IMG/VR virus record: IMGVR_UViG_3300006120_000027 | Coordinates: 1-54,304 of that record | Direction: 5' to 3' (one strand) | Length of the DNA stretch: 54,304 nt | From: a virus | Taxonomy: Duplodnaviria; Caudoviricetes | Shown: positions 2 through 41,985 of the stretch, piece by piece | How the letters are laid out: each line of letters begins with the position of its first letter | How positions within the stretch are numbered: the first letter of the stretch is position 1 | Program-made: the position numbers and the translations under genes | Notes under the pieces: generated by a model | Databases searched by the model: none | What the model was told of the DNA's origin: nothing | What the model saw: the letters and a program-made list of their open reading frames with translations, nothing else

Positions 2-3000
2 CCTCTAGACAATAGCACTAAAATTGCCACAACCGCTTACGCAGACGCAGCTGTCGCTGTCGAAGCCTCAGCACGTGCAACAGCTGTTACCAGCGAAGCC
101 TCCGCTAGAGCAACCGCAGTTACTAACGCAATAACAACTGCAGAATCATTTGCAACTAATGCAGATGCAACAGTGCTTTCAAGCGCAAAGTCTTATGCTG
201 ATACAGTTGCTGCAACAGCAACATCTAATGCTGAAAGTTATGCTAACAGTACAGCTTCAACATTAACAAACAAAACAATTTCTGGTTCTGCAAATACATT
301 ATCCAATATTCCAAACTCAGCTTTATCTCACAGCTCAATAACTGTTGATGGAAATCAAATAAACCTTGGTGGATCAGTAACAACTTATCAACAACCTACA
401 CTTGGCTCAACTCCACTAACTTCAGGTAATACAATAACATCAGTAAGTGGTTTAACTCTTGTAAATCCATCAATGTCAGCAATTATTAATGGTGTTACAA
501 ATACACTAACGTTACCGCAGAGCACAGACACGTTAGTTGGTCGTGCAACTCAAGACACATTAACAAATAAAACAATTTCTGGAATGTCAAATAATATAAC
601 AAACATTCCAAACAACTCAACAACAGCAACATCAAATAATACAAACAATGCAATTGTATTGCGTGACTCATCTGGTTCATTCCAGGCATCAATGATAACA
701 CTATCTGGAACTCCAGTAAATAGTGGAGATGTAGTTACAAAGTCTTATGCTGACAGCATCGCCGCTGGAATGAACTGGCACTCTAATGTTGTTGCTGCAA
801 CTACTGCTAACTTGTCTTCAGTATATGCAGCGGGCAGCACGGATGCAAATGGCGGGAATGGAATTGGTGCTACTTTAACAGCATCGGCAAATGGAGTTCT
901 TACTGTTGATACTATAAATGTTAACGTAGGAAACCGTGTTCTTGTTAAAAACCAAACAACAAAAACTCAAAATGGTATTTATGTTGTAACAGATAAAGGT
1001 TCTGCTTCATCTAAATGGATTTTAACACGTTCAACTGATGCAGATAACCATATAAGTAAGCAGGTTGAGTCTGGAGATGCAGTTTATGTACTTTATGGTA
1101 CTACAAATGCAAATCAAGCATTTGTTCAAATTGATCAGGGTACTGGAACAGACAATTCAATTGTAATAGGTACAGATAATATTGAATATTCACAGTTCTC
1201 TGGAACTGGAGCTATTACACCAGGAAATGGTCTTGTTAAAACAGGAAATACTCTTGCAGTTCAACAGGGATCAACAAATACAATAAATGTTCAAAATACT
1301 GGAATTGACCTTGCATCAGTATCACAATCAAATTCAACAGGTTCGGCTGCAACACAGTTTGTTACCGCTATAAATGTTGATCAGTGGGGTCGTGTAACTG
1401 GACAAATTACAAATCCTATTCCTGTAGCAACAAACAGCGTATCAGGTATAGCTCAATTTGATTCATCTACATTCACAGTTAATGGCGGTTCTGTTGCTAT
1501 AAGACTTGGCTCTATAACTCCTCAAATGCTTACAGCAAGTAAAGTAACCATTGGCTCCACAGATGTTGGCCTGGGCGGAAGTGCATCAACAATTGATGGA
1601 TTAACTTTAACTAATTTAACAATTGGATCCCTAACATCTAGTGCTACATTGTCTAATTTAACTTTAACTACCCCAAGAATTTCTTCGATTGTTAATACTG
1701 GTACACTCACCCTTCCAAGTTCATCTGACACATTGGTGGGTCGTGCAACAACTGATACATTAACAAATAAATCAATATCGGGTACTGCAAATACTTTGAC
1801 AAATGTACCAAACTCAGCACTCACAAATTCTTCAGTGACTGTTGGTACAACATCAATATCACTTGGCGGATCTTCAACTACATTATCTGGCTTAACATCT
1901 GTATCTTCAACAGGATTTACAGGTGCTCTTACAGGTAATGCTTCAACAGCAACCAAGCTAGCCGCAACAAAAAATATCAACGGTGTTGCCTTTGACGGTT
2001 CGGCTGACATCACTGTAAAGGCTGTTAATCCAAACGCACTTACAATTGGCACAGGTCTCTCAGGAACATCTTATGATGGCTCAGGAACAGTTACAGTTGC
2101 CATAGATTCAACAGTAGCTACATTAACTGGATCACAAACTCTTACAAATAAAACTCTTACATCTCCAGTAATTGGAACTATTTCAAATACAGGTACATTA
2201 ACACTTCCAACATCAACAGATACACTTGTAGGTAAGGCAACAACAGATATCTTTACAAACAAGACATTTGATACAGCTGGAACAGGTAACATATTTAAGA
2301 TCGCTGGAACTCAGATTACGGCTAACACAGGCACAGGATCAAACGTTCTTGCTACCAGCCCAACTGTAACTGGGCTTTCAACAGACACAATAACAACCTC
2401 TGGAAATGTAACTATAGGTGGTAATATATCGGTTGGCGGTAATACAACAATTACTGGTAACTTAACTGTTAATGGTACAACTACCACAATTAACTCTACT
2501 ACAGTTACAACTTCAGAAAAAATTCTTGAAATTGCTAAGGTAGCCACACCTACAAATACAACAGCAGACGGAGCTGGCATTCAAGTAGATGGTGCAACAA
2601 ATAAAACATTCCTATATGGATCATCAGCAAATGCCTGGAACTCATCAGAAACAATCAACCTTTTTTCTGGTAAAACATTCCAAATTAATGGAACAGATGT
2701 TCTTACTGCTAATGCAGTCGGAGGAAGAACAATCCCATCATCTAATATTGTTGGTTTAACAGATATTCAAACTCTTACAAATAAGACTTTGACAGCACCA
2801 ATAATTACTCTTCCTTCTGGTGGCATAACATTCTCTGATTCAACTGTTCAGACTACAGCTGGAGTACCATCTATAACACCAATTAATATTTCAAATACAA
2901 CATCATCATTTACATTATCTTCATCTATTGTAAAAGATTCGTTTGTGTTGATTGGAAATTCTACAACAGCAGTTAACGTAACTGTCCCACTAGATTCAAC

Positions 3001-3190
3001 TTATTCTTATCCAGTAGGTGCATCAATGACATTCCAGCAAACTGGTACAGCATTAGTAACATTTGTAGCAGCATCAGGGGTAACAATTCAAGCAACACCA
3101 GGATTAAAGTTAAGAGCCCAATATTCAGCAGCAACACTTCTAAAAGTTGCAGCAAATATATGGTCACTATATGGAGATCTTTCAGCTTAA
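2..3190 (+). CDS. Large Thr/Ser/Gly-rich virion fibre-like protein, 5'-truncated
   Basis: Frame is open from base 2 (PLDNSTKIATTAYADAAV...), so the real start lies before the window. Recurrent TLTNKT / TLTLPxSxDTLVGxATxD repeats, a RVLVKNQT...NGIYVV...LTRSTDAD segment typical of phage fibre proteins, and a C-terminal ...LRAQYSAATLLK...WSLYGDL domain. Confidence 0.75.
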   Translation, partial: PLDNSTKIATTAYADAAVAVEASARATAVTSEASARATAVTNAITTAESFATNADATVLSSAKSYADTVAATATSNAESYANSTASTLTNKTISGSANTLSNIPNSALSHSSITVDGNQINLGGSVTTYQQPTLGSTPLTSGNTITSVSGLTLVNPSMSAIINGVTNTLTLPQSTDTLVGRATQDTLTNKTISGMSNNITNIPNNSTTATSNNTNNAIVLRDSSGSFQASMITLSGTPVNSGDVVTKSYADSIAAGMNWHSNVVAATTANLSSVYAAGSTDANGGNGIGATLTASANGVLTVDTINVNVGNRVLVKNQTTKTQNGIYVVTDKGSASSKWILTRSTDADNHISKQVESGDAVYVLYGTTNANQAFVQIDQGTGTDNSIVIGTDNIEYSQFSGTGAITPGNGLVKTGNTLAVQQGSTNTINVQNTGIDLASVSQSNSTGSAATQFVTAINVDQWGRVTGQITNPIPVATNSVSGIAQFDSSTFTVNGGSVAIRLGSITPQMLTASKVTIGSTDVGLGGSASTIDGLTLTNLTIGSLTSSATLSNLTLTTPRISSIVNTGTLTLPSSSDTLVGRATTDTLTNKSISGTANTLTNVPNSALTNSSVTVGTTSISLGGSSTTLSGLTSVSSTGFTGALTGNASTATKLAATKNINGVAFDGSADITVKAVNPNALTIGTGLSGTSYDGSGTVTVAIDSTVATLTGSQTLTNKTLTSPVIGTISNTGTLTLPTSTDTLVGKATTDIFTNKTFDTAGTGNIFKIAGTQITANTGTGSNVLATSPTVTGLSTDTITTSGNVTIGGNISVGGNTTITGNLTVNGTTTTINSTTVTTSEKILEIAKVATPTNTTADGAGIQVDGATNKTFLYGSSANAWNSSETINLFSGKTFQINGTDVLTANAVGGRTIPSSNIVGLTDIQTLTNKTLTAPIITLPSGGITFSDSTVQTTAGVPSITPINISNTTSSFTLSSSIVKDSFVLIGNSTTAVNVTVPLDSTYSYPVGASMTFQQTGTALVTFVAASGVTIQATPGLKLRAQYSAATLLKVAANIWSLYGDLSA

Positions 3191-3221: not shown

Positions 3222-4733
3222 ATGTCAAAAAATGCAATTAACGCAGGTCAAGGAAAAGAAGTATCCCCGTTAGCAGTAACGGGGATAACAGCAACAGATG
3301 TTGGAGTAGGACGTGCTTATAATAATGGTGCAGTAAATTTATCATGGACTTTGCCATCAAATTCTAATGCTGCAACTCTTTATACAGTTACTTCTACACC
3401 AAGTACAACAACTCAAACTTCTGCAACAAATTCTTTGACATTTGTCGGGCTTGTATCTGGAACTTCTTACACATTTACAGTTGTTCCTTCAAATATCCAT
3501 GGATCTGGACCAAGTACTACATCATCATCAGTTACTGCAACAACAGTGCCGTCATCTCCAACAGGTGTATCAGCAACAGATCAGGGATCTGGAAGAGCAT
3601 ATAATAATGGTCAAGCATCAGTGGCATTTTCAGCACCAAGTTATACTGGCCCAGGAAGTTTATCTTATACAGCAACATCCTCTGGTTCTCAATCGGCTAC
3701 AGGTTCAGGAAGTCCACTAACAATAACAGGTTTGTCATCAGCAACAAATTATACCTACACTGTTACTGCAACAAATTCAAATGGTACCTCTGCAGCATCT
3801 GCAGCATCTGCAGCAGTTACTGCAACTACAGTGCCAGATACGCCTTCAGCACCATCTGCATCGTCCCCTTCAGCGGGAACAGATACCGTTAGCTGGTCAC
3901 CTCCTGCAAATGGTGGTTCAGGAATTACTTCATATTATTTATATGATAATGGAGGGGCAGTAGGAAACGTTGGTAACACAACTTCATATAATATTGGTGA
4001 AGGGCAAGGAAGCAATCACTACTTCCAAGTAGCTGCAATTAATGCAAATGGACAAGGCGGAACTTCGGCTGCTGGAAATACAGTAACTACAACATTTTCA
4101 TTTGTACCATTTGGCTTTGCGCCATTCGGATTCACACCGTTTGGATTTACTCCATTTGGATTTACTCCATTTGGGTTTACACCATATAGCTTTACCCCGT
4201 TTGGTTTTACCCCATCTGGTGCGTTTAGGTTTACCCCTTGGGGTAACTCAATTGATGTAGATGTTAAAGTAATTACTCCAGAGGGACAAAAGTATGCTGG
4301 AGAATTAAAAGTAGGAGATAAGATATTAGCACTTGATTTTGACCATGAAGTGCCTGATGCCGATAAGACATTAGCCTTTGCAAGAGATCTTGAAAATTGG
4401 AATATAAATTCAACTGAATTTGCTAATCGTAAAATTGTTGAAACAACAGTAACTGAAATTAATGAAGCAATTGGAACAAATTATATTTATGTAGATGGCG
4501 AAATGTTTACAAGAACTCACTACATATTAGTTAAAAAAGATGATATTGTAAAGTTTATAAAAGTTACAGATGTTGATACAAGCTATCAAAGATACTCTTA
4601 TAAAGAAAAAGCATTTGTTGACATAACATTAGTAGAAGATATTTTTACAGAAATGAAAAATGTATCTATAAAGTGTGAGCCATATCGCAATTTCTTTACC
4701 GCAAATATGCTAGTATTTGATAGCATTCACTAA
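3222..4733 (+). CDS. Three FN3-like domains + (FGFTP)n repeat + C-terminal Hint-like domain; probable virion protein
   Basis: FN3 signatures (LSWTLP...GLVSGTSYTFTVVPSN; GLSSATNYTYTVTATN; VSWSPPANGGSGITSY...YFQVAAIN). Nine pentapeptide units. Hint-like block A (SIDVDVKVITPEG..GELKVGD), block B (FTRTH) and block F/G (VSIKCEPYRNFFTANMLVFD). SD AAGGGG upstream. Confidence 0.85.
   Translation: MSKNAINAGQGKEVSPLAVTGITATDVGVGRAYNNGAVNLSWTLPSNSNAATLYTVTSTPSTTTQTSATNSLTFVGLVSGTSYTFTVVPSNIHGSGPSTTSSSVTATTVPSSPTGVSATDQGSGRAYNNGQASVAFSAPSYTGPGSLSYTATSSGSQSATGSGSPLTITGLSSATNYTYTVTATNSNGTSAASAASAAVTATTVPDTPSAPSASSPSAGTDTVSWSPPANGGSGITSYYLYDNGGAVGNVGNTTSYNIGEGQGSNHYFQVAAINANGQGGTSAAGNTVTTTFSFVPFGFAPFGFTPFGFTPFGFTPFGFTPYSFTPFGFTPSGAFRFTPWGNSIDVDVKVITPEGQKYAGELKVGDKILALDFDHEVPDADKTLAFARDLENWNINSTEFANRKIVETTVTEINEAIGTNYIYVDGEMFTRTHYILVKKDDIVKFIKVTDVDTSYQRYSYKEKAFVDITLVEDIFTEMKNVSIKCEPYRNFFTANMLVFDSIH
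4095..4238 (+). repeat. Coding 15-bp tandem repeat: FSFVP FGFAP (FGFTP)x4 YSFTP FGFTP SGA FRFTP
   Basis: Read directly from the sequence; most units differ at synonymous third codon positions. Confidence 0.95.
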
Positions 4734-4822: not shown

Positions 4823-5548
4823 ATGAAAACAAAAAATATTGAATTTCATCTTTCTTTGCCAAAAATGATTGATGTATTCCCTGAACCAGAACCAGCATAC
4901 AAAAATTTGTCTGAGTGGTATAAAAAAATGAATTCTTATTTAAATGATAATAAAACCCCTAAAAATGGAGTGCAAGCTTTAACTGTAAAAAAATGTCAAG
5001 CAATTCTTGATTCTATGATGATGGGCTATGTATTTAAATGTCCAGTTGACGTTTATATAGATACTACTGGAGAAAATCCCATTTTTGAAATATCTGGCGG
5101 TTTTAATTTTTTGTCACACCCAATGACGGGATCTCACGCTAAAGAGCAGTATCATCAAATGCCAATAGATGAAACATTGTTTGTTAAAGAACTACTTAGG
5201 TTAAACATGATTTGGCTTGTAAAAACACAACCAGGATATAGTTGCATGTTTACTAATATAAATCATTCTGATGAGTCACCACTAGTAACCGTTCCAGGAG
5301 TCATAGACACTGACTCTTTTTACAATGAAGGTTTATTTTCATTTTTTGTTAAGAAAAATTATAAAGGTTTTATTAAAAAAGGAACTCCTTTAATTCAAAT
5401 TATCCCTTTTAAAAGAGATGTTTTTACCCACACGGTTGTAAAAAATAAAGATATATCCGAAAAGTTGTATAAACAACAAGTTATGCTAAGGTCTGTTTTT
5501 AATTCTGGTTATAAAAGATTTTTTTGGAGTAAAAAAAGATATGAATAA
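4823..5548 (+). CDS. DUF6065-like / dUTPase-fold-like phage protein (paralogue 1)
   Basis: Motifs PEPA...EWYK, TVKKC..ILDSM..GY, GVIDTD, IKKGTPLIQIIPFKRD, all shared with 6758..7492. Confidence 0.6.
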   Translation: MKTKNIEFHLSLPKMIDVFPEPEPAYKNLSEWYKKMNSYLNDNKTPKNGVQALTVKKCQAILDSMMMGYVFKCPVDVYIDTTGENPIFEISGGFNFLSHPMTGSHAKEQYHQMPIDETLFVKELLRLNMIWLVKTQPGYSCMFTNINHSDESPLVTVPGVIDTDSFYNEGLFSFFVKKNYKGFIKKGTPLIQIIPFKRDVFTHTVVKNKDISEKLYKQQVMLRSVFNSGYKRFFWSKKRYE

Positions 5549-6129: not shown

Positions 6130-6768
6130 ATGTTAATTACATCAAAAAATAAAATATCAGGATCTAAATATTGGATTAACTCTGAAAATAAAACGTTCTC
6201 CAGTTTAGTTAAAGATAGCAAATTAATTGATTATTGGGCAAAATTTAATTATATAAAAAAATATAATTTTGAAAACAAAATATTAATACCAGCAAATTTA
6301 TATGTTTTTTATTTTGGTAATAAAATTAATATTAAATCAAAAGAGCCTTTAATCTTAAATCAAAATACTCATGCTGAAATATGGGTGCAAAAAATGGAAG
6401 AAAGTCTATATGCACTAGACAAATGCTGGCAAAGACAATTTTATCCTTCGCCTAATTCCTACAACGTGCCAAGTGATTGTTTTGATGCAATTTATAGGTT
6501 TTATACCCCTTGGATTATAAATGATGATGTTGAGGTAAAAATATTAAATTCAAGTGATGTTTTTTATATTTATACAAAAAATATTAAATTTAAAAAAAAT
6601 AATATAAATAGTGAATACATAGATATTCCATTTATAGATTTTTCAATAAAAAAAATGGGGCCTCACATGAAAGATAAAGATTATGGTATTATTGAAATAG
6701 GAACAAGTATGTATGATGTTTTAATAGAAGATAAAAAGATCAAAGAAAGAGTTTTAAATGGAAAATAG
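6130..6768 (+). CDS. Hypothetical protein, possibly a degenerate third DUF6065-like paralogue
   Basis: 212-aa ORF tightly packed with its neighbours. YRFYTPWII and GIIEIGTSMYDV echo LRLNMIWLV and GFIKKGTPLIQI of the neighbouring paralogues. Confidence 0.55.
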   Translation: MLITSKNKISGSKYWINSENKTFSSLVKDSKLIDYWAKFNYIKKYNFENKILIPANLYVFYFGNKINIKSKEPLILNQNTHAEIWVQKMEESLYALDKCWQRQFYPSPNSYNVPSDCFDAIYRFYTPWIINDDVEVKILNSSDVFYIYTKNIKFKKNNINSEYIDIPFIDFSIKKMGPHMKDKDYGIIEIGTSMYDVLIEDKKIKERVLNGK

Positions 6769-7492
6769 TAAAGATTTTACATTAATCCCAACAGATAGAT
6801 CAAATTTAAATTTATCAGAAATGATTCATCCAGTTCAAGCATCCAAAGCACTCCCAGACTGGTATAAAGACTTAGCAGGATATAGCAATGGAACCAGTCA
6901 TGATATAAAAAATCTTTTACCCAATAATGATCGTGGTTCTGATGGATCTGATGTTTCTACAAAACTGTGCTTACCTTTTCTAGATGCAATGATATCTGGA
7001 TACATGTATTTACTTGAAGATGATTTAACTGTAGATTTAGATAAAAACGGCAAGCCAGAGCTTTCCTGGGATAAGCCAACCATGATAGATATTAGACCGC
7101 ATGTAGATATGGCAATTCCAGAAGATTGTCACCCTATTCAATTTGGGTTTAAGATGTCTTGGTATTACAGAACTCCAGAAAAATATTCTACACTTATTAC
7201 CCACCCAATGAATAGGTTTGATTTGCCTTTTTATATACCTTCGGGTATTGTAGATTCAGATATATGGGGGCTGCCAGTATTTATTCCATTTTTCTTAAAA
7301 AGAAATTTTGTTGGAACTATAAAAAAGGGCACACCAATATTTCAAATGATTCCAATAAAAAGAGATGATTGGAATTTAAATATAGATTTCAGTGAAGACT
7401 CATATATGGAAAATTTAATTCTTGAAGAAAAAAGAAGGTCACACATTACAGCGCATTATAAAAAATCAACTTGGCAAAAGAAAAATTACTAA
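6758..7492 (+). CDS. DUF6065-like / dUTPase-fold-like phage protein (paralogue 2)
   Basis: PVQASKALPDWYK, STKLCLPFLDAMISGY, THPMNRFDLPF, GIVDSD, IKKGTPIFQMIPIKRD. Confidence 0.65.
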   Translation: MENSKDFTLIPTDRSNLNLSEMIHPVQASKALPDWYKDLAGYSNGTSHDIKNLLPNNDRGSDGSDVSTKLCLPFLDAMISGYMYLLEDDLTVDLDKNGKPELSWDKPTMIDIRPHVDMAIPEDCHPIQFGFKMSWYYRTPEKYSTLITHPMNRFDLPFYIPSGIVDSDIWGLPVFIPFFLKRNFVGTIKKGTPIFQMIPIKRDDWNLNIDFSEDSYMENLILEEKRRSHITAHYKKSTWQKKNY

Positions 7493-8982: not shown

Positions 8983-9597
8983 ATGAAAACAGAAATTATT
9001 CAAGATGATGATTTTTTAACTAAAGAAGATCAACAAAATTTTATTAATAAAATGTTTGGAAATGAAACAAAAGAAGGTCAGATCCCTTTCTGGAGGATGT
9101 CAAATATCCTAGCAATATTTAACAGTCAAAATAACAAAGAAGATTTTCCGTTTAGACAAACTCCACTTGCTTTCATGACTCCAGAAACTGGTTTATTCCT
9201 TCAATCTTTTGGAGATTTAAATCTTGAAGATTTTAAAGATATATTTGATAAGTTTTGCAAAAAACACAATATAGAATATGATAAAATATTAAGGTCAAGG
9301 CTTGTTATTACTGGCATGGATAATCAAGGCAAATATCATCTTCCACATGTTGATACAATTATTGATCATGATGTATTTTTATACTATTTGCATGACGTTG
9401 ATGGGGATACTATATTTTTTGATAAATTTTTAAATGATGATTTATCAAACCCACAAATAATAAAAAGAGTTTCTCCAAAAATGGGTAGAGCAATAAGATT
9501 TGACGGTCATCAATTTCATTCATCATATACAACAGAAAAGATGCAATTCAGATGCGTTTTAAATGTTTGCTACACAACTAAAAAGGAAAAAAAATGA
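8983..9597 (+). CDS. 2OG-Fe(II) oxygenase
   Basis: PHVD (HxD), LYYLHDVDGDTIFF, PKMGRAIRFDG..FHSS, distal RCVLN; SD AGGAG. Confidence 0.8.
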   Translation: MKTEIIQDDDFLTKEDQQNFINKMFGNETKEGQIPFWRMSNILAIFNSQNNKEDFPFRQTPLAFMTPETGLFLQSFGDLNLEDFKDIFDKFCKKHNIEYDKILRSRLVITGMDNQGKYHLPHVDTIIDHDVFLYYLHDVDGDTIFFDKFLNDDLSNPQIIKRVSPKMGRAIRFDGHQFHSSYTTEKMQFRCVLNVCYTTKKEKK

Positions 9598-10346
9598 TTA
9601 TACAAATTATTGGACTGCCAGGGAGTGGTAAAACTACTTTGGCAAATGCTTTAGTAGATAGAATCAATGCAGTTCATTTAAATGCAGATTATGTACGTTC
9701 TACTATAAATTCCGACCTAGGATTTTCTACAGAAGATAGAATTGAACATTCTCGTCGTATGGGAGAGATGGCAAAGATGCTGTCTAATCAAGGCTTAAAT
9801 GTAGTAGTTGATTTTATTTGCCCAACACAATCTACACGAGATGCCTTTGGTAATCCCGACGTACTTATTTGGATGGACACCCTGCAAAAAGGTCGCTTTG
9901 AAGATACAAATAAAATATGGGAAGAACCAGTAAAGTTTGATTACCGTTGGCTTACTTATGACGCTGCAGGCCAAGTTGAAATTATGATTAAAGAGTTAGG
10001 TCTCCCCGACTGGAAAGCACCAACTACTTTAATGCTTGGTCGCTATCAACCTTGGCATGAAGGTCATCATGCTCTATACGATGAGGCGGGTAAAAGAACA
10101 AGACAAGTTATGCTTGGTGTTCGCAATACTCAAGGTACAAGTGATAAAGATCCATTATCATTTGAAGAAGTTAAAGGTTATATTCTTAAAGACCCACATA
10201 TGTCAAAAGCTATGATTGTGAAGATGCCTAATATTACCAATATTATATATGGAAGAGATGTAGGTTATAAGATTGAACAAGTATCGTTAGGAGCAGACAT
10301 TGAAGCTATTTCAGCAACTGAAAAACGCAAGCAACTCGGTCTTTAA
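9594..10346 (+). CDS. Adenylylsulfate kinase-like domain fused to a HIGH-motif nucleotidyltransferase-like domain
   Basis: P-loop GLPGSGKTT; LNADYVR...DLGFSTEDR (CysC-like); VVDFICP; C-terminal GRYQPWHEGH. Confidence 0.8.
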   Translation: MIIQIIGLPGSGKTTLANALVDRINAVHLNADYVRSTINSDLGFSTEDRIEHSRRMGEMAKMLSNQGLNVVVDFICPTQSTRDAFGNPDVLIWMDTLQKGRFEDTNKIWEEPVKFDYRWLTYDAAGQVEIMIKELGLPDWKAPTTLMLGRYQPWHEGHHALYDEAGKRTRQVMLGVRNTQGTSDKDPLSFEEVKGYILKDPHMSKAMIVKMPNITNIIYGRDVGYKIEQVSLGADIEAISATEKRKQLGL

Positions 10347-29984: not shown

Positions 29985-32900
29985 ATGAAGACGGAATATG
30001 TATCGCCGTACTCTGTATCAAAACGTCAAACAATACCAATTGACGTAAATGACCCACGTCTATCTTACCTTAAAGCAGGAGCAACAAGAGGACGTATCGG
30101 TGCTGAAATTCAAGTTGTTGATTTATCTAATAGCGGCGTATTAAATCTATTAGGATCTGGACTTAGTGGAAGTGGTGGTGGAAATGGTGGTGGAGCCCCA
30201 GGAGACGGTTCCAGCACACCAGGAGCAGTATCAAAAGTTGGAACCCCACCTCTTAAAGTAACTAATCTTGCAGCAATTTGGGATCCATCAAATGATGGAC
30301 AACTTATTTTAACATTTAATTTTGATTTAAATGATCCAGCAAATGCATATTTTGATTCTATTGTTGTTCAGCTGCATGACCCAATAAGCAATGCATTTTA
30401 TCCTATTCTTGAAACTATTCCTTATACTGCAGCCAATATACCTTTATCTTCTTCATCCGCAAGCCAAACATTAAAAATTTCTCCTTCTGACATGTCAACA
30501 ACTGGTTTTCCTAATTTTACAACTGCATTTGATCAAGTTGAAGTAGCAACATATGATACAAGCAATCAAACAGCAGGATTTTGTGACCCAGTTGATATGC
30601 CAACTTACGTGGTTACTTTGCCAGCACCAATTATATCAGAACAAGATGCAACATCTTCGTATATAATAACAACATCAAATCTTGCTAATGCAATTTCCTC
30701 TCAAACTTTTTTAGGCGAAGTAATACAAGAGTTTGTTTACAATACAGCAAATTTAACTTCTACACAAGTTGATGCTGCAGTTTCAGAAGCAGTTGCAGCA
30801 AACAGGCCAGGTTGGATTCAAGTAGGTGAATTAAAAACTATTAGCCCTACAACAGTTTTTGCAGCAGACGGCCTTCATAGATACGTAAGAGCATATTTTA
30901 TAACTAAAAATGGTGCAAAGTCTGCATACTCTAATTATGTTGAAGCAACACCAGCAGCATTGTTACCAGCAAACAATTTGCCACCAGCAAATGTAACAAA
31001 TGTTTCGGGTGCTTTTTCAAACAGTGGTTCGGGAGATGACATAGTAATTAGTTATACCTTACCTGCCATCCTAGATTCAGATTTAAATAAAGCGATAACT
31101 ATTAAAGTTAAACTAGTTCCAACTGTTGCAAATAATCTATCAGGATTTTTTTATCATACTATTGGAAGTAAAACTGAAACGTCTTTTACAATTCCTAAAA
31201 ATTTAATATTTGCACAATTTGGTCAATATTATAAATCTTATACAGGAACTGTTGTTACTCAATCTCAATATGGAACAGATAGCTCAACAGTACAAAATTT
31301 AAATGCATTTACAAGAACTAGTTCAATTGCTTCAGTAGTTCCAGTAGCAACTGTTACAAATGTTATTGATGGATATAACGTACAGTTTGCTCTCGGAACA
31401 ACAGGTGCTTCATATGGAGAAGTTTATCAATTTTTTATTGATCCTACTAATAATTTTAATACTGTTGACATGCCAGATTATATGGACGCAACCTTTACTT
31501 CTGGGGGAACATCAGGCCAAAAAACTTTTGTTGTAAATTCAATTTTAATGGAAAATGGCGGGTTTGCATTACCAACTGGAAAGACTGTAAATACTTATGT
31601 CGGATATCCAATAACTGGAACTGGTATTCCTGCAAACACTTGGGTAACTTCAATATCTGGTTCTGGCCCATATACAATTACAGTAAACAATAATTTGACC
31701 CAGCAAGCAGCTGGAAATTATCATATGCAATCTTTGGTATATTCAGGAATAGGTCCAGCAAACGTATTTGACAATCTATATGCAACTGCTTATTTAATTT
31801 TAAGATATTATGATATTTATGACTCTCCTTCACAAAATTCTATTGTTTATCAAGTAACTCCAACAAATCCATCAATATCTGTTATTCAAAATGCAGTCCA
31901 GGTAGGAAGTGGCGGAGCTATATATGTTGGGTCGTCGGCTACATCGGGATCAAGAATAGTACTCGGACCATCGGGCAATAAAGGCCCTGATGGGTCATCG
32001 GCTTATTCTGGAATATTTGCATTTGACTATGGAGCCGCATCTGGAGATGCTGCAAGTACAGCTATCATTACAAACCCTGGAGCATCAAGTTATACATTTG
32101 AAACTAAAAACGCAAAAATTGCTGATTGGTCAATTAATGGTACACAGATTCAAAATACTTTAGGCACTTCGTCAAATTACGTAGGATTGTCTGCAACAGG
32201 TCCCTACTCATTTTGGGCGGGATCTACGACAAGTGGTGGAGATGCACAGGCTAAATTTACAGTAACTCCAGGCGGAGCAGTAGTAGCAAGAAATATTCAA
32301 ATAATAGGTAGTGGTAATAATTCTGATATTCTGATCAGTGCAGGCACAGGTTTTTATGTTTATGGCGATGGAAGCATTACTGCAACAAAAGCAACAATAA
32401 CTGGAACATTGCACGTAGGAAACAAATCAACATTTGATAGCGATGTAACTATCGGCCCAGCTGGCTATTTGCTTGCAAATGGAACTGGCGGGGCTTATTT
32501 AAAAATTGGTGGGAATGGTCTTAATGCTTCTCCTGACGGCACATCAATAACTACACAAATATCATCAAGTGTAATAGGAACTAACACAGACGGGCTTGGA
32601 ATATCGTTTGCAACAAAAGGAGCATACCTTGGAGGTATGAGTTCTTCTGATGGAAACCCATGGATTGTTGCAGCGGGTAAAATATATTCTTATAATGGTG
32701 CCATAGAGTTAAATTCATCATCTGCTACAATCAGCATATATCCATCAGATAGCCAAAGCAATTATGGAATTAAGCTTTATGGGAATAGCCCAAGTAGTGC
32801 AAACGCTATTACTGTAGGGTATTTGCCAGGCTCAGGATATGATCCTACATTTAAGGTGACCTACGCTGGAGTATTAACAGCTCACGGAGCTATTATTGAT

Positions 32901-33542
32901 GGAAATATAACTGCAACAACTGGGTATATAGGAACTTCTTCAAATGGTTGGATAATTAATGACAGCAATATAATTTCTAAATCATCCAAATCTGCAACTT
33001 ATTTACAACTAGATGCAGCTACCGATTCATTAATTTCACATTCAACTGGTTCATCTGCACCAGGATCCATAATATCATTCAGTGCGGTAAGTTCTGGTGG
33101 TTCAATAGTAGCAGGCTCTGCTCAAGCAGCCAGCATAGACACTATAACAAAGTACTCTGCTGGGTATATGTCGTCTACAGGGTATAGCGTATTACAAAGT
33201 GCGAAAGCCTTTCAGTTTTTTGGAGGAAATCCCACAGTTGGCTCAATGCCACTGATTTCTGTAGATCCAGACGGATCTTCAACAACATGGACAAATAATG
33301 GAAGTATTCAAGTTCAAAAACAATCATTTACTGCAATAAATACTGGAGTTGTTTATTTAAATAGCAATGATATAATTATCGGCAGCAAGAGTAACGGCAA
33401 TATTTATTTTAATGGTTTTCTTGATATTAGAAATGATACTAACATAACTGGAGCACACCAGTATATTAGAAATATTTGGATTAGTTCATCATACTCAACC
33501 CCATCTGGAGGGTTTGTTGGTGATTTATGGGTTACGTATTAA
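29985..33542 (+). CDS. Tail fibre / host-specificity protein
   Basis: 1185 aa, Gly/Ser/Thr-rich, Ig/FN3-like segments, GNITATTGYIG..GWII motif, C-terminal GDLWVTY. Confidence 0.7.
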   Translation: MKTEYVSPYSVSKRQTIPIDVNDPRLSYLKAGATRGRIGAEIQVVDLSNSGVLNLLGSGLSGSGGGNGGGAPGDGSSTPGAVSKVGTPPLKVTNLAAIWDPSNDGQLILTFNFDLNDPANAYFDSIVVQLHDPISNAFYPILETIPYTAANIPLSSSSASQTLKISPSDMSTTGFPNFTTAFDQVEVATYDTSNQTAGFCDPVDMPTYVVTLPAPIISEQDATSSYIITTSNLANAISSQTFLGEVIQEFVYNTANLTSTQVDAAVSEAVAANRPGWIQVGELKTISPTTVFAADGLHRYVRAYFITKNGAKSAYSNYVEATPAALLPANNLPPANVTNVSGAFSNSGSGDDIVISYTLPAILDSDLNKAITIKVKLVPTVANNLSGFFYHTIGSKTETSFTIPKNLIFAQFGQYYKSYTGTVVTQSQYGTDSSTVQNLNAFTRTSSIASVVPVATVTNVIDGYNVQFALGTTGASYGEVYQFFIDPTNNFNTVDMPDYMDATFTSGGTSGQKTFVVNSILMENGGFALPTGKTVNTYVGYPITGTGIPANTWVTSISGSGPYTITVNNNLTQQAAGNYHMQSLVYSGIGPANVFDNLYATAYLILRYYDIYDSPSQNSIVYQVTPTNPSISVIQNAVQVGSGGAIYVGSSATSGSRIVLGPSGNKGPDGSSAYSGIFAFDYGAASGDAASTAIITNPGASSYTFETKNAKIADWSINGTQIQNTLGTSSNYVGLSATGPYSFWAGSTTSGGDAQAKFTVTPGGAVVARNIQIIGSGNNSDILISAGTGFYVYGDGSITATKATITGTLHVGNKSTFDSDVTIGPAGYLLANGTGGAYLKIGGNGLNASPDGTSITTQISSSVIGTNTDGLGISFATKGAYLGGMSSSDGNPWIVAAGKIYSYNGAIELNSSSATISIYPSDSQSNYGIKLYGNSPSSANAITVGYLPGSGYDPTFKVTYAGVLTAHGAIIDGNITATTGYIGTSSNGWIINDSNIISKSSKSATYLQLDAATDSLISHSTGSSAPGSIISFSAVSSGGSIVAGSAQAASIDTITKYSAGYMSSTGYSVLQSAKAFQFFGGNPTVGSMPLISVDPDGSSTTWTNNGSIQVQKQSFTAINTGVVYLNSNDIIIGSKSNGNIYFNGFLDIRNDTNITGAHQYIRNIWISSSYSTPSGGFVGDLWVTY

Positions 33543-33551
33543 GGGGATAAA

Positions 33552-35861
33552 TTGGGTTTATCAGTAAACACTGGAAGCTGGGGGCCAGCTAAAAAAATTT
33601 TTGTAAATGTAGGTAGTTGGATTGAAGCCGTAGCTGGCTTTATAAATACCGCTGCTGGCTGGGTTCAATTTTATCCAAAAAGCGGACCATCAACAAAAAC
33701 CCTTCCAGTTTTAACTTCTACTGGTTCATACCCCAACTATACTTTATCTGGTAAAATTTATTATTTCTCTGGGGTAAATTCTATATTTTATAATTTTTTT
33801 AGTTCAAATGATCAAATTACTTGGACTCAAATTTTTTCATCAAACATATCAATATCAAATCCTACATCACAAACTGGATACACAAATACTCCTACAAATT
33901 ACACCACCAACTCAACATATTTTTTAAATAATGGCGGAGCATATGCAAAAATGACAGTTTTTGCATACGATGCAGCTAGAAATTTAACTCCAATAGATAG
34001 CAATATCGTAACACTTCCAAGCCCACCAATATATGTAAGTGGTGCCCCTGCAACTGTAGCAGATACTCTTAATATGAAAATAACAATTTCATCAGGCACA
34101 TTGTTATTTTATGGTGCACCTACATCTTATGATTATTATGTTATGTATTCTGTAGATGATTCTCCAAGAAGTTATGTTCAAGATACAAAGATAACAACAA
34201 GTATTGGAGTCTCAGTTGATTATATTGCAACAAAATCTGGCTATTATAAAGTTTATGCCGATGCAGTGAATTCATATGGAACTTCTTCAGCTAATAGCGA
34301 TTATAGTTCGCCAACCATATATTTATTTCAACCTCCAACAGCAAATTCATATCCATACATTACAGTAAACGGTGTATACGCATCAGGAGCTGAGATAACA
34401 GATACAATTTTAAATGTGCATTCTGGGTCTTATTCAAATTATGCAAGCGTAACAACAAAATTAATAAGATCAAATACTAGAAATAATAATGATTTTTATT
34501 ACAATGGTACATCTTTAACAACTCCATATAAAATTACATCTAATGACGGAGATCCCACATTGGGAGCGTATAGATTTACTGCTATGGATATAGTTACTGA
34601 TGTTAAAGGTACAAACTATTATTATTGGCAAGGCTCAAGCCCTTCAAATGGAACAACTGGAACAAGCCCTGGGGGCGGAGGATATTCAGTTATAGCAACC
34701 GCAGCGGTATGGACCGTATACCTTTCTACGACTGTAGGAACGTTAGCGCAACCTTCTATCCAAGTTGTAAGAGGACAATCATTAACACTACCAACACCAA
34801 CGGCAGCAGGATACATATTTCAATATTGGACACTTGGGGGAGGATCTAAGTTTGCAAACGGTGGTACTGTAATAACACCAACATCAGATCTGTACCTTTA
34901 TGCTTACTGGTCATCCAGTACACCGCCTTCTCTATCCAACTTTACTATAAGTAGTACTGGTAATTATATAAACTATTCATTTAGCAATTCTGGAGGAAGT
35001 CCAGTAAATGGATACAACATTAGTGTTGGAGGATATGATTACGCTGTTTCTAGTAATTCTGGTCAATTACCAGGGCAATTTTGGGATCCATCTGACACTA
35101 CTACGCCAAATGTAACCGCAATGGTTTACGCACTAGGAAATGGAAATTCTATTATTGGTAACACTGCGTATTCAAATACTCTACCAAATCCATATTATAC
35201 TGGCACTCAACCACCAGCTTCATCAACTTCAGGTACTGGAACACAAACACCTTCACCAACCCCTACACCAACCCCTACACCAACCCCTACACAAACTCAA
35301 ACACTTACCCCTCCATTTTCCTTCAGTACAATTTCTTTTTTCTTTACTCCATTTACATTTACTCCTTCTGGCCCTGCAGCAGGAGGTTTTGTGTTTACCC
35401 CGTGGGGAAACTCTATTGACGTTGATGTAAAAATACTGACACCAGATGGACAAAAGTATGCGGGGGACTTAAAAGTTGGAAATACAATTTTATCATTAAA
35501 TATTAGTGAAAAAGATTATGATAATTGGCAAACCAATCCAGAAATATTTAATAATTATGAAAAGACAGAAACAAAAATTGTTTCAATAAACAGGGCAATG
35601 GGTTCAAGATATTTATATGTTGATGGAGATATATTTACTCCTTCTCATTACATCCTTGCCAAAAAAGATAATATCGTCAAATTTGTTAAGGTAACAGATA
35701 TTGACACAAGTTATAAGCGTTACTCTTATAAAGAAAATGATTTTGTTGATATCACTATAGTAGAAGATATATTTTCTCAAATGGAAAATGTATCTATAAA
35801 ATGTGAGCCTTACAATAATTTCTTTACTAGCAATATGTTAGTTTTTGATAGCGTAAAGTGA
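33552..35861 (+). CDS. Virion-type protein: beta-rich domains + InlB B-repeat-like domain + PT/FTP repeats + C-terminal Hint-like domain
   Basis: TTG start with SD AAGGGG. LPTPTAAGYIFQYW...DLYLYAYW; (PT)n; FFFTPFTFTP..FVFTPWGN; Hint-like domain from 35412, about 65% identical (hand count) to that of 3222..4733. Confidence 0.82.
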   Translation: MGLSVNTGSWGPAKKIFVNVGSWIEAVAGFINTAAGWVQFYPKSGPSTKTLPVLTSTGSYPNYTLSGKIYYFSGVNSIFYNFFSSNDQITWTQIFSSNISISNPTSQTGYTNTPTNYTTNSTYFLNNGGAYAKMTVFAYDAARNLTPIDSNIVTLPSPPIYVSGAPATVADTLNMKITISSGTLLFYGAPTSYDYYVMYSVDDSPRSYVQDTKITTSIGVSVDYIATKSGYYKVYADAVNSYGTSSANSDYSSPTIYLFQPPTANSYPYITVNGVYASGAEITDTILNVHSGSYSNYASVTTKLIRSNTRNNNDFYYNGTSLTTPYKITSNDGDPTLGAYRFTAMDIVTDVKGTNYYYWQGSSPSNGTTGTSPGGGGYSVIATAAVWTVYLSTTVGTLAQPSIQVVRGQSLTLPTPTAAGYIFQYWTLGGGSKFANGGTVITPTSDLYLYAYWSSSTPPSLSNFTISSTGNYINYSFSNSGGSPVNGYNISVGGYDYAVSSNSGQLPGQFWDPSDTTTPNVTAMVYALGNGNSIIGNTAYSNTLPNPYYTGTQPPASSTSGTGTQTPSPTPTPTPTPTPTQTQTLTPPFSFSTISFFFTPFTFTPSGPAAGGFVFTPWGNSIDVDVKILTPDGQKYAGDLKVGNTILSLNISEKDYDNWQTNPEIFNNYEKTETKIVSINRAMGSRYLYVDGDIFTPSHYILAKKDNIVKFVKVTDIDTSYKRYSYKENDFVDITIVEDIFSQMENVSIKCEPYNNFFTSNMLVFDSVK
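35256..35291 (+). repeat. Perfect 12-bp tandem repeat CCAACCCCTACA x3 encoding (PT)6
   Basis: Read directly from the sequence. Confidence 0.9.
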
Positions 35862-35872
35862 GGGATTAATTA

Positions 35873-36748
35873 ATGTCAAGTATTTTTGTTCAAATAGCTG
35901 CATATCACGATTATGAATTACCAAGAACAATTAAAGATTGTATTGAAAAAAGTTCTAAAAACAATATAATAAATATTGGAGTGAACTTTACTTTTTGGAG
36001 TAGAAAAAAAGAATTTATTTTTCCAGAATATGATAATGTAAAAATTAATATTATGAAGTCTCCAGAGGGGCTGGGAGTTGGTGTTGGAAGATATAATGCT
36101 AATAAGTTTTATAACAATGAAGATTATTACCTACAAATAGATTCTCATACAAGATTTGTTGAAAATTGGGATGAAAACTTTATATCTACGCATCAAAAAT
36201 ATACAAGTCAAGGATATAATCCAATTTTAACAACTTATCCAGGATGGTATAAATATGTTGACTATAATATAGTTTACGAAGAAAATCCAACAGTGCCATT
36301 TATAGATTTTAAGCACGATGAAAAACTTTTTTTACATGCAGGGTATTTGAACCAAGATGGCAATCCAAATAAACCAGAAAATATATTTACAAATTCTGTT
36401 GCGGGGGGACAAATTTTTGGTGCTGGAAACATATCTGAAATACCTTTAAATCCCAAAATCTTTATGTGGGGCGAAGAGTTTCTTACAGCAGCTAGATTTT
36501 TTACTCATGGCTATGACTTAATGCTACCAGAACAACAAAACCTTTACCATCTTTATTTTGGGGATCCAGTAAGTAGTCAAAGAAGACAACCTACTTTAGA
36601 CTATCCAAAACAAACTGAAGCATTAATAAGAGAATCTAATGATGAAATTAGAACTATTATACATAATAAAATCATTGGCCCCGACGCCCTAGGCTCAAAA
36701 AGAACACTGGATGAATTTTTTAAATATGCGGGGATTGATTTTAATTAA
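35873..36748 (+). CDS. Glycosyltransferase, Skp1-hydroxyproline GlcNAc-transferase (Gnt1/GT60)-like
   Basis: SIFVQIAAYHDYE, GVGVGRY, EDYYLQIDSHTRFVENWD, ILTTYP, FMWGEE...ARFFTHGYDL, YHLY. Confidence 0.85.
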   Translation: MSSIFVQIAAYHDYELPRTIKDCIEKSSKNNIINIGVNFTFWSRKKEFIFPEYDNVKINIMKSPEGLGVGVGRYNANKFYNNEDYYLQIDSHTRFVENWDENFISTHQKYTSQGYNPILTTYPGWYKYVDYNIVYEENPTVPFIDFKHDEKLFLHAGYLNQDGNPNKPENIFTNSVAGGQIFGAGNISEIPLNPKIFMWGEEFLTAARFFTHGYDLMLPEQQNLYHLYFGDPVSSQRRQPTLDYPKQTEALIRESNDEIRTIIHNKIIGPDALGSKRTLDEFFKYAGIDFN

Positions 36749-41346: not shown

Positions 41347-41985
41347 ATGATAATAGAAAAATATTCAATGGGTATAGTTTATGTTAGAAATATACTATCA
41401 AATTGCAATGAAATAATTGATAAAATTGAAGATCTTGAACATAAGATAATTAACACATCATCTTATGTTAAGACTACAAAGTGGTCTCCTTGGGATTATG
41501 ACGATTTACATTTTTGTATGAAAAAAAATATTCCAAGAACAATTGACCTTAACTCAAATGATAAATTTTATGAAGAACAATTATTTATTTCAAAAACTAT
41601 TACTGATGGTGTAAATATTGCTATGGAAAAGTATTTTGAAATATACCCACTTGCAAGACAAGAAGCAAAAAGTCTTGAAAATCCAATTTCATTATTAAAA
41701 TATGAACAGGGCGGGTTTTTGCCACAACACACAGACCTAGGGAGAAGTACTAGAGTAATATCTGGAGTAGTATACTTAAATGACGGTTATGGTGGCGGAG
41801 AAATTAATTTTCCATATGCTGATTTAAAAATAAAGCCAGAAGCTGGTAGTTGTGTGATATTTCCATCTAGCTATTTAGGTACGCATTTTGTATCAGAACT
41901 TATTGAAGGAGCTAGATATGTTTTGCCATATTGGTTCCATCATGTTAAAGAGGAGTTGCAAGTAAACTCAGATGGTAGTGCATAA
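41347..41985 (+). CDS. Prolyl 4-hydroxylase-like 2OG-Fe(II) oxygenase
   Basis: LLKYEQGGFLPQHTD, RVISGVVYLNDGYGGGEINF, KPEAGSCVIFPS, THFV, GARY. Confidence 0.88.
   Translation: MIIEKYSMGIVYVRNILSNCNEIIDKIEDLEHKIINTSSYVKTTKWSPWDYDDLHFCMKKNIPRTIDLNSNDKFYEEQLFISKTITDGVNIAMEKYFEIYPLARQEAKSLENPISLLKYEQGGFLPQHTDLGRSTRVISGVVYLNDGYGGGEINFPYADLKIKPEAGSCVIFPSSYLGTHFVSELIEGARYVLPYWFHHVKEELQVNSDGSA

Follow-up and report, generated by a model that had tools for sequence, protein, structure and literature searches.

A phenylalanine- and proline-rich repeat array coupled to a C-terminal HINT domain in a family of phage proteins

Why would a phage protein place a dense string of phenylalanine- and proline-rich pentapeptides directly ahead of a domain of the self-processing type? 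This question is raised by P0001, a 503-amino-acid (aa) protein encoded on IMG/VR record IMGVR_UViG_3300006120_000027, a virus of the Caudoviricetes analyzed over 54,304 nucleotides (this whole stretch is hereafter called the window, and all positions refer to it unless a related locus is named). Our study shows that the array and the HINT domain that follows it are one coupled module, and argues for a model in which removal of the HINT domain would turn the array into the C-terminal end of the mature protein. The N-terminal part of this architecture is as follows:

3222..4733, plus strand: gene of P0001, with three FN3 domains, an aromatic/Pro array, and a C-terminal HINT domain (open reading frame [ORF] list and translation)
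3273..4094, plus strand: three FN3 domains, about aa 18-291 (Pfam PF00041, E 8.3e-16, three stretches; AlphaFold)
4095..4238, plus strand: array of nine [F/Y]-x-F-x-P units, five of them exact FGFTP (sequence, Tandem Repeats Finder)
4239..4247, plus strand: junction tripeptide W340-G341-N342, the end of the N-extein, identical in the paralogue P0004 (FTPWGNSIDVDVK)

The array and its coupling to the HINT domain

Translation and Tandem Repeats Finder (4088-4219, period 15, 8.8 copies, 74% matches) confirmed the nine F/Y-x-F-x-P units that the original prediction, made from the sequence alone, had placed between the last FN3 domain and the HINT domain; its two flanks were recovered as well, the FN3 domains by Pfam and AlphaFold and the HINT domain by fold and profile. 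Eight units follow one another in register as 15-nucleotide repeats over 4095-4214 (FSFVP FGFAP FGFTP FGFTP FGFTP FGFTP YSFTP FGFTP), and a 3-aa SGA insertion then separates them from the ninth, FRFTP (4224-4238). With 33% Phe, 18% Pro, and one charged residue in a 51-residue stretch, the segment is indeed not a normal linker, as had been claimed. Over the 108,604 six-frame positions of the window, 62 instances of [FYW]x[FYW]xP were counted, and clusters of at least three arise only twice, in P0001 (nine units) and in the paralogue at 35337-35402 (three units). No ORF of at least 80 aa lies antisense to the array, and P0001 has no PHROG match. In the AlphaFold model of full-length P0001 (60-row alignment), FN3 strands at aa 20-281 have a predicted local distance difference test score (pLDDT) mostly above 90, the array falls below 50 at aa 301-337 between flanking domains above 90, and the score climbs to about 90 from aa 341 onward; the array is thus modeled as a disordered segment. 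Its identity as a pentapeptide-repeat beta-helix of the A(D/N)LXX type was considered and rejected, there being no such Pfam match and no structure in the modeled array.

The codons of the array bear on how it is maintained. The five exact FGFTP units of the window occur in four DNA versions (units 4 and 5 are identical) and all their differences are synonymous, in agreement with the synonymous divergence first noticed. Exact FGFTP runs in other phages (64 distinct runs) gave 296 adjacent unit pairs, 224 of which differed by one to five synonymous changes only, while 72 (24%) were identical in DNA compared to 1.6% expected from pooled codon use; the proteins of close relatives differ in length by multiples of five residues, and their unit counts run from 8 to 13. 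Because pair differences are mostly synonymous, lengths change in steps of five residues, and unit counts vary, the peptide is under selection and its copy number is turning over. Selection on the peptide, as originally argued, therefore holds, whereas the exclusion of slippage does not, slippage or duplication being also at work.

The link between array and HINT domain was seen from both sides. A word-indexed protein search with aa 285-503 returned 405 homologues at an E value of ≤0.01, and all 121 sequences examined had at least two units (at least three in 116; median 7, range 2 to 13), although this search was biased to array-bearing proteins because the query included the array. A profile of the window's two C-terminal domains alone, without the array, gave 97 hits among 1.84 billion cluster representatives, and composition was scored in the last 40 aa before the junction for the 64 representatives with at least 60 upstream residues. 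At least three aromatic-x-aromatic-x-P units were present in 22 of the 64, and the arrays of the remaining representatives were (FGA)n, (FFPP)n, (PPPF)n, PPYxN, poly-Pro, GPPx, FYHG, or TP-rich. The same 40 residues were aromatic-rich (≥20%) or Pro-rich (≥15%) in 59 of 64, with a median aromatic content of 25% before the junction versus 9.3% in the rest of the N-terminal part. Conversely, a degenerate DNA pattern for (FGFTP)3 detected 78 arrays in 74 IMG/VR loci, and 74 of these arrays run in frame into a HINT domain; a pattern search for an array followed by HINT had been proposed with the original prediction. Of the other four, two are cut by the end of the locus, one has its HINT domain in another frame (L155), and one is without HINT (L140).

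Outside the viral collection the module is nearly absent. Among cellular genomes of 185,579 species, the (FGFTP)3 pattern was found on one contig, which carries the array-HINT module: this 7.6-kb contig (L157), binned in an uncultured Ferruginibacter metagenome-assembled genome, encodes a protein with a PASTA-like domain, an FGFTP array, and a HINT domain with Cys1 and a His-Asn end, next to a fiber-like fragment, and is probably a phage contig within a bacterial bin. A protein alignment search of cellular genomes found no relative. A tblastn search with P0001 against 50,697 GenBank phage records (E 1e-5) gave no match, and the family is therefore not seen in deposited phage genomes at this threshold. 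In IMG/VR, alignment of the C-terminal domain identified relatives on 270 contigs, often with two HINT copies per genome; a related-locus search with a single C-terminal domain sequence had found none, and a multi-sequence alignment was needed.

Across the family, the N-terminal parts vary (FN3, PASTA PF03793, or PF09479 in precomputed Pfam assignments), and the C-terminal cassette alone is constant; the N-terminal binding-type domains are swappable. The unit type differs between lineages, and what is conserved is a class of composition, not FGFTP itself. Arbitrary linkers in homologues had been named as the finding that would speak against the original prediction, and the outcome lies halfway: close relatives keep FGFTP, and the wider family swaps the unit within the aromatic- or Pro-rich class described above.

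The HINT domain and a proposed self-unmasking tail

The nature of the C-terminal domain rests on structure and on family profiles. The 161-aa C-terminal part of P0001 has no Pfam match, even at an E value of 10, and P0001 alone showed no HINT match by sequence in the PDB. An AlphaFold model of aa 335-503 (81-row alignment, pLDDT 90.6) was compared with the PDB by Foldseek and best matched 2lwy, a BIL domain of Clostridium thermocellum (E 1e-6, TM 0.82 by target), followed by Tetrahymena BIL2 (6y75), inteins, and Hedgehog (1at0); there were 46 matches at E ≤1e-3, and all listed ones were BIL domains, inteins, or Hedgehog. Because the model matches BIL domains, inteins, and Hedgehog HhC, we assign the domain to the HINT fold. 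The family profile also retrieved 2lwy (2.3e-6, first among HINT matches) and the gp41-1 intein (9.5e-5) from the PDB. The curated sequence models (Pfam Hint and Intein_splicing) miss the P0001 domain, and a precomputed PF14890 assignment was present on 4 of 120 listed homologues (P0045, P0062, P0070, and P0093). The domain and its predicted active residues are placed as follows:

4248..4721, plus strand: HINT (intein/BIL/Hedgehog-type) domain, aa 343-500 (AlphaFold, Foldseek, PDB profile)
4248..4250, plus strand: Ser343 codon, predicted position-1 nucleophile and scissile-bond residue (81-sequence alignment)
4509..4520, plus strand: T430-R-T-H433, block B TxxH motif (81-sequence alignment)
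4716..4730, plus strand: domain end F499-D500, then C-extein S501-I-H503 (81-sequence alignment)

Of 70 aligned relatives, 67 have Ser and 3 have Cys at position 1 of the domain; Cys is the residue in L157 and P0123. In the 81-sequence alignment, position 430 is S57/T22/A2 and position 433 is H78/Q3; catalytic roles of Thr B:7 and His B:10 are described in PMC4031507. At the other end, position 499 is H41, Y17, and F16 of 80 (Phe in the window), position 500 is D62 and N13 of 80 (Asp in the window), and position 501 is Ser in 38 of 80, as in the window. For the block F Asp (F:4), expected close to the scissile bond, the conserved candidates are position 484 (N45/D22 of 81; Lys in the window) and C485 (C62/81), and position 348, Val in the window, is Thr in 68 of 73 relatives. 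The domain spans 158 aa and is without homing endonuclease. Taken together, the clade is intein-like by its +1 Ser, yet lacks the terminal Asn, the endonuclease, and domain-free alleles.

What follows the domain was tallied in 204 family proteins with a complete domain end, the C-extein being counted from the end of the domain model, which itself takes in the S-I-H after D500 as its final three positions. In 123 of them the protein stops 0 to 6 residues past the model and in 10 there are 8 to 17 more residues, while 63 extend by 29 to 43 aa, starting VHD/SQP (the slash marks the domain end) and sharing a conserved SLExLYQxWKxSQ, in a large subclade that includes P0033-P0122, and 8 extend by 86 to 164 aa that are helical-looking or contain Flg_new. 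VHD/S precedes the listed C-exteins of at least 29 aa, except that a few have Y or F instead of H and P0080 has Ala instead of Ser. The HINT-less case, L140 (reverse strand, array from position 3257 of that locus), encodes an FN3-array protein with at least 11 units that ends 7 residues after the array.

We propose, with a probability of roughly 0.55, that P0001 is an FN3 adhesin-like protein in which self-excision of the HINT domain exposes a Phe/Pro-rich, FG-like C-terminal tail that serves as a hydrophobic anchor. In this model, the array would be the disordered C-terminal end of the N-extein, ahead of the autoprocessing domain, which would mask it and keep it soluble until assembly. Ser343, aided by T430 and H433, would attack the Asn342-Ser343 peptide bond (N-to-O acyl shift), and the HINT domain would then leave, either by hydrolysis of the ester by water or by splicing through Ser501 onto the Ser-Ile-His C-extein. 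The mature product would be three FN3 domains followed by (FGFTP)n, with the aromatic array as a free C-terminal tail that would act as a cohesive anchor, holding the FN3 module to the virion, at the fiber or tail tip, or to the host envelope. The tail is placed at the mature end because C-exteins are short or absent in most members and because L140 exists without HINT. Among the fates suggested in the original prediction, the one most in line with the evidence, L140 in particular, is an FG-like segment left as the C-terminus once HINT has cleaved; both the cleavage and the anchoring role are what we infer from these features, and overall the original interpretation is partly supported.

Several points weigh against this model. 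Low pLDDT values are the same for true disorder and for an oligomeric structure that the model does not capture. The HINT copy of the window could be less active or inactive because Phe499 stands in place of a penultimate His, Asp500 in place of the intein Asn, and Val348 in place of Thr. Splicing, if it takes place, would leave the array internal in the 71 of 204 relatives with C-exteins of 29 to 164 aa. Moreover, the conservation of a composition class with a nonuniversal unit weakens any reading tied to FGFTP: the (FGA)n arrays are Pro-free, and the TP-rich, PPYxN, and poly-Pro arrays are poor in Phe. Finally, the HINT domain itself may dock a lineage-specific partner and remain on the virion, a possibility raised by the comparison of paralogues within genomes.

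This comparison starts from the second copy in the window:

33552..35861, plus strand: gene of the paralogue P0004, 769 aa (translation, 52% identity over the C-terminal 280 aa)
35337-35402, plus strand: P0004 array, three FxFTP units ([FYW]x[FYW]xP cluster)
35412-35858, plus strand: P0004 HINT domain, 61-65% identical to that of P0001

P0004 has an N-terminal part unlike that of P0001, then a (TP)n linker, the FxFTP units, and the HINT domain; the junction is identical in both proteins (FTPWGN/SIDVDVK, with the slash at the predicted cut). The two HINT domains of the window are more similar to each other than to those of other lineages (51-52%), and the same holds in eight of nine same-genome pairs, with identities of 61-73%. 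Such similarity suggests gene conversion or coevolution with a shared partner.

Gene neighborhood and rival explanations

The genes around P0001 and its paralogue concern both the site of action and the alternatives to the tail model:

2..3190, plus strand: tail-fiber-like gene, open at the 5' end of the window (PHROG 8745 tail fiber, E 1.7e-24)
4823..5548, plus strand: phrog_7084-family gene directly 3' of the P0001 gene, distantly DUF6065-like (PHROG E 1e-44)
6758..7492, plus strand: second phrog_7084-family copy (PHROG E 2e-33, family alignment)
35873..36748, plus strand: glycosyltransferase PF11397 "GlcNAc," directly after the P0004 gene (Pfam E 8.7e-38)
41347..41985, plus strand: 2-oxoglutarate (2OG)-Fe(II) oxygenase PF13640, candidate prolyl hydroxylase (Pfam E 3.3e-13)

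The source phage is siphovirus-like and its related contigs reach about 105 to 116 kb; the record that holds the window has an estimated completeness of 48%, and the window a GC content of 34.7%. Its portal protein is 52% identical to portals of Streptomyces phages of about 128 kb, and other genes encode a protease, the capsid, a 1,614-aa tape measure, minor tail proteins, and replication functions. P0004 is the last gene of the tail module, with the tape measure and minor tail genes upstream, and 68 of 80 related loci have a homologue of the C-terminal part of the fiber upstream of the HINT gene. This tail-module context of P0001 and P0004 points to a role in the virion. The protein of 2-3190 repeats many times a motif like TLTNKT(I/L)SG / TDTLVG(R/K)AT and also matches head-decoration and virion structural PHROGs, besides tail fiber.

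In 58 of 80 loci the gene immediately 3' of the HINT gene belongs to phrog_7084, often at a spacing of 3 to 35 nucleotides, and in L140 a phrog_7084 gene directly follows the HINT-less array protein. Protein-atlas features and structure point this family toward DUF6065-bearing viral clusters; Pfam DUF6065 itself was detected in 3 of 46 members only, at E 0.02 or weaker (E 0.05 for the product of 4823..5548), a PDB sequence search with the member P0216 returned nothing meaningful, and a literature search returned no mention of DUF6065. The residues W32, K56, C58, D63, D76, D162, D164, R198, and R223 are invariant in the family. The predicted complex of P0001 aa 285-503 with its phrog_7084 neighbor scored 0.18, against a mark of 0.32, a value that speaks neither for nor against contact.

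Two further observations on the window may be recorded. The portal gene and an endonuclease V-like gene enclose a gene for an APS-kinase-like P-loop protein (9594-10346; PF01583, E 5.5e-18), which has a weak cytidylyltransferase-like match in its C-terminal part. At 32386-32476 on the minus strand, ARAGORN called a tRNA-like element with a four-base anticodon within the ORF 29985-33542, probably a false positive.

The oxygenase and glycosyltransferase genes bear on the suggestion, made from the start, that the units are repeated modification sites. Pro would then be hydroxylated by the 2OG-Fe(II) oxygenase and hydroxyproline or Thr glycosylated by the PF11397 enzyme, as for Pro-rich repeats of some viral and eukaryotic proteins; PF11397 is a family that we take to include the Skp1 hydroxyproline GlcNAc-transferase. 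Adjacency was scored at 68 usable related loci, arrays with at least 15% Pro being called Pro-rich: 24 of 33 Pro-rich arrays have a PF13640 gene in the 3 kb downstream, versus 2 of 35 Pro-poor ones. Two to three oxygenase genes follow the (FFPP)n and (PPPF)n arrays inside 3 kb, a number that rises to as many as four or five inside 6 kb; over the same 6 kb no oxygenase gene accompanies the (FGA)n arrays, which have no Pro. (The loci with (FFPP)n or (PPPF)n arrays and oxygenases are L047, L053, L056, L060-L062, L064, L066, L070, L071, L073, L077-L079, L081, and L082.) Pfam confirmed all eight oxygenase and both glycosyltransferase neighbors tested. In the TP-rich paralogues L036, L038, and L039/L040, the HINT gene is followed by a PF13640 oxygenase and then by a PF11397 glycosyltransferase, and P0004 likewise has the PF11397 gene directly downstream; a single contig even offers both states, its (FGA)n copy (L026) being without oxygenase and its TP-rich copy (L038) having oxygenase and glycosyltransferase. 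Moreover, the window oxygenase has Bacillus prolyl 4-hydroxylases as its sole PDB sequence matches. These arrangements suggest a hydroxylation/glycosylation pair acting on a Pro/Thr linker. Nevertheless, the nine Pro-rich loci without a nearby oxygenase are all of the FGFTP type, including the nearest relatives of the window (L005 and L007), and the oxygenase of the window is 36.6 kb away from the P0001 array. On the HINT tree the association comes down to four or five independent contrasts (p 0.125 by sign test); in addition, the PDB matches are weak (E ~5e-4), and the PF13640 family is a broad one. As (FGA)n arrays hold the same position without Pro or Thr, modification is not the core function of the segment. 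We thus regard Pro modification as a lead for the paralogue and for the FFPP, PPPF, and TP arrays, unsupported for the FGFTP arrays, and as an account of the P0001 array it is possible but unlikely. A comparison of unit sequence with neighboring enzymes, the source of this lead, had also been proposed at the outset.

The remaining alternatives differ in what they ask of the sequence. If the array were a flexible low-complexity spacer of drifting composition whose sequence has no role of its own, one would understand the fast shifts of unit type (FGFTP, FGA, FFPP, PPPF, or TP-rich) and copy number between lineages, the duplication or slippage evident in the DNA-identical neighbors, the lack of modeled structure, and the plain (TP)n linker that P0004 uses over most of the segment. 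Ordinary linkers, however, are hydrophilic, unlike this Phe-rich array and the aromatic excess before the junction across the family; peptide identity is held despite synonymous divergence, (FGFTP)3 is nearly absent elsewhere, as seen in the cellular genomes, and TP-type members still have an aromatic patch adjacent to the junction, so that we hold a mere spacer to be doubtful, more so than modification. More doubtful again is a use of the HINT domain as a ligation device, in which a second molecule would supply the nucleophile that opens the Asn342-Ser343 ester, for instance a virion-protein lysine, an amine of the cell wall, or a hydroxyl group of a lipid or sugar: the Phe-rich tail would first dock hydrophobically and the FN3 adhesin would then be tethered covalently through it, with further tuning of the tail by prolyl hydroxylation and glycosylation in sister lineages. 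If true, phages would have their own equivalent of Hedgehog cholesteroylation or BUBL ubiquitin-like conjugation. An oligomerizing stalk, in a collagen-like or triple-beta-helix role, with the HINT domain as a self-cutting intramolecular chaperone comparable to Peptidase S74, would suit the adjoining tail-fiber genes, the Ser nucleophile of the C-terminal domain predicted to self-cleave, the strict periodicity of the short repeat, and the covariation of same-genome HINT domains, which fits assembly-specific contacts. Since repeat periods of 3, 4, 5, and 8 residues interchange at the same position, one defined stalk geometry is hard to reconcile with the family; in addition, FN3 strings without an N-terminal virion-attachment domain are atypical as fiber shafts, and there is no Pfam S74 match, the fold being HINT. 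We consider such a stalk improbable, below even the ligation scheme. Last, the original prediction had also mentioned cores like those of ribosomally synthesized and posttranslationally modified peptides (RiPPs), to which released bioactive peptides can be added. Identical short peptides are indeed repeated and phrog_7084 is a conserved neighbor, but ten downstream ORFs searched in Pfam, with seven unassigned ones searched again in PHROGs, include no RiPP-type enzyme family, the segments on either side of the array are folded domains (FN3 and HINT) and not a leader peptide, protease sites between units are absent, and the genes stand in a virion-module context. This suggestion finds no support and is hardly credible for P0001.

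Significance and relation to known systems

Known HINT domains comprise mobile inteins, Hedgehog processing domains, and modules that release bacterial toxins. The clade described here is large and nonmobile, and is fixed at the C-terminus of tail-associated adhesin-like proteins. If processing occurs, it would represent a new maturation step for phage surface proteins and a natural self-unmasking hydrophobic tail, of relevance to phage adsorption and to the biophysics of FG-like cohesive sequences. The family may also provide Ser-nucleophile HINT domains able to cope with very hydrophobic N-exteins, and the adjacency of oxygenase and glycosyltransferase genes makes hydroxylation and glycosylation of phage virion proteins a testable proposition. 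In the literature accessible to our search, which left subscription journals and supplements outside, no C-terminal HINT domain was described in phage tail proteins and the repeat strings were not found in a relevant sense, the strings FGAFGAFGA, FFPPFFPP, and GFTPFGFTP appearing only in synthetic-peptide papers. The papers retrieved on Hint or intein-like domains and phage tails dealt with inteins, toxins, or genomes, and the "Hint domain" of the phiCbK paper was set aside, as it is a terminase intein and not a tail-protein HINT domain.

Among known systems, Hedgehog HhC (1at0 and 6tyy; structural matches at E 2-3e-5) shares a C-terminal HINT domain in an extracellular-type protein, cuts only at the N-terminal junction, and leaves a released part with a hydrophobic C-terminal end. 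Hedgehog adds cholesterol by means of a sterol-recognition region that follows the HINT core; P0001, in contrast, ends 3 residues past the domain, without room for such a region, and its hydrophobic end would be the encoded Phe-rich array. Nup98 has Phe-Gly-rich (GLFG) repeats upstream of a Ser-nucleophile autoproteolytic domain, an analogy only, without homology, since the cleaving fold differs from the HINT fold of P0001. The FG motifs of nucleoporins are separated by hydrophilic spacers, whereas the units of P0001 abut without spacers and bring a Phe every 2 to 3 residues. T4 Hoc is a string of Ig-like domains that attaches by its C-terminal end. Decoration proteins of this type would share with P0001 a three-domain Ig-like/FN3 string and an expected C-terminal attachment, but no sequence similarity was found (no PHROG match), and the C-terminus of P0001 is the array and HINT domain. 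Like proteins with Peptidase S74 chaperones, P0001 is tail-associated and ends in a domain predicted to cut itself off at a Ser; it differs by the absence of a Pfam S74 match, by the HINT fold, and by a predicted disordered aromatic array instead of a beta-helix before it.

The closest relatives by fold are the BIL domains, with 2lwy as best structural and PDB profile match. The shared features are a small size without homing endonuclease, an N-terminal nucleophile, the TxxH motif, and a host protein that is nonessential, variable, and of extracellular type. BIL domains are defined as lacking a +1 nucleophile, according to PMC4031507, while P0001 has Ser501 at this position, a Ser and not a Cys nucleophile, and a Phe-Asp and not a His-Asn end; its HINT domain also comes last in a phage protein, after an aromatic array. 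The second-best structural match, BIL2 of Tetrahymena BUBL proteins (6y75/6tmm), is a precedent for HINT-driven conjugation, its N-terminal (thio)ester passing a ubiquitin-like N-extein onto lysines of other proteins (PMC8616854, section 2.4); it differs from P0001 in having Cys1, a terminal Asn, ubiquitin-like flanks, and a eukaryotic host, and P0001 has no predicted acceptor. Compared with canonical class 1 inteins, P0001 has the +1 Ser501 but neither the penultimate His nor the terminal Asn (L157 does have His-Asn), and its domain does not interrupt a conserved site of a protein that is also found intein-free, only 1 of 78 FGFTP arrays being without the domain. Altogether, P0001 and its relatives present a known catalytic fold in a new and widespread architecture, with an unusual and near-obligate partner segment.

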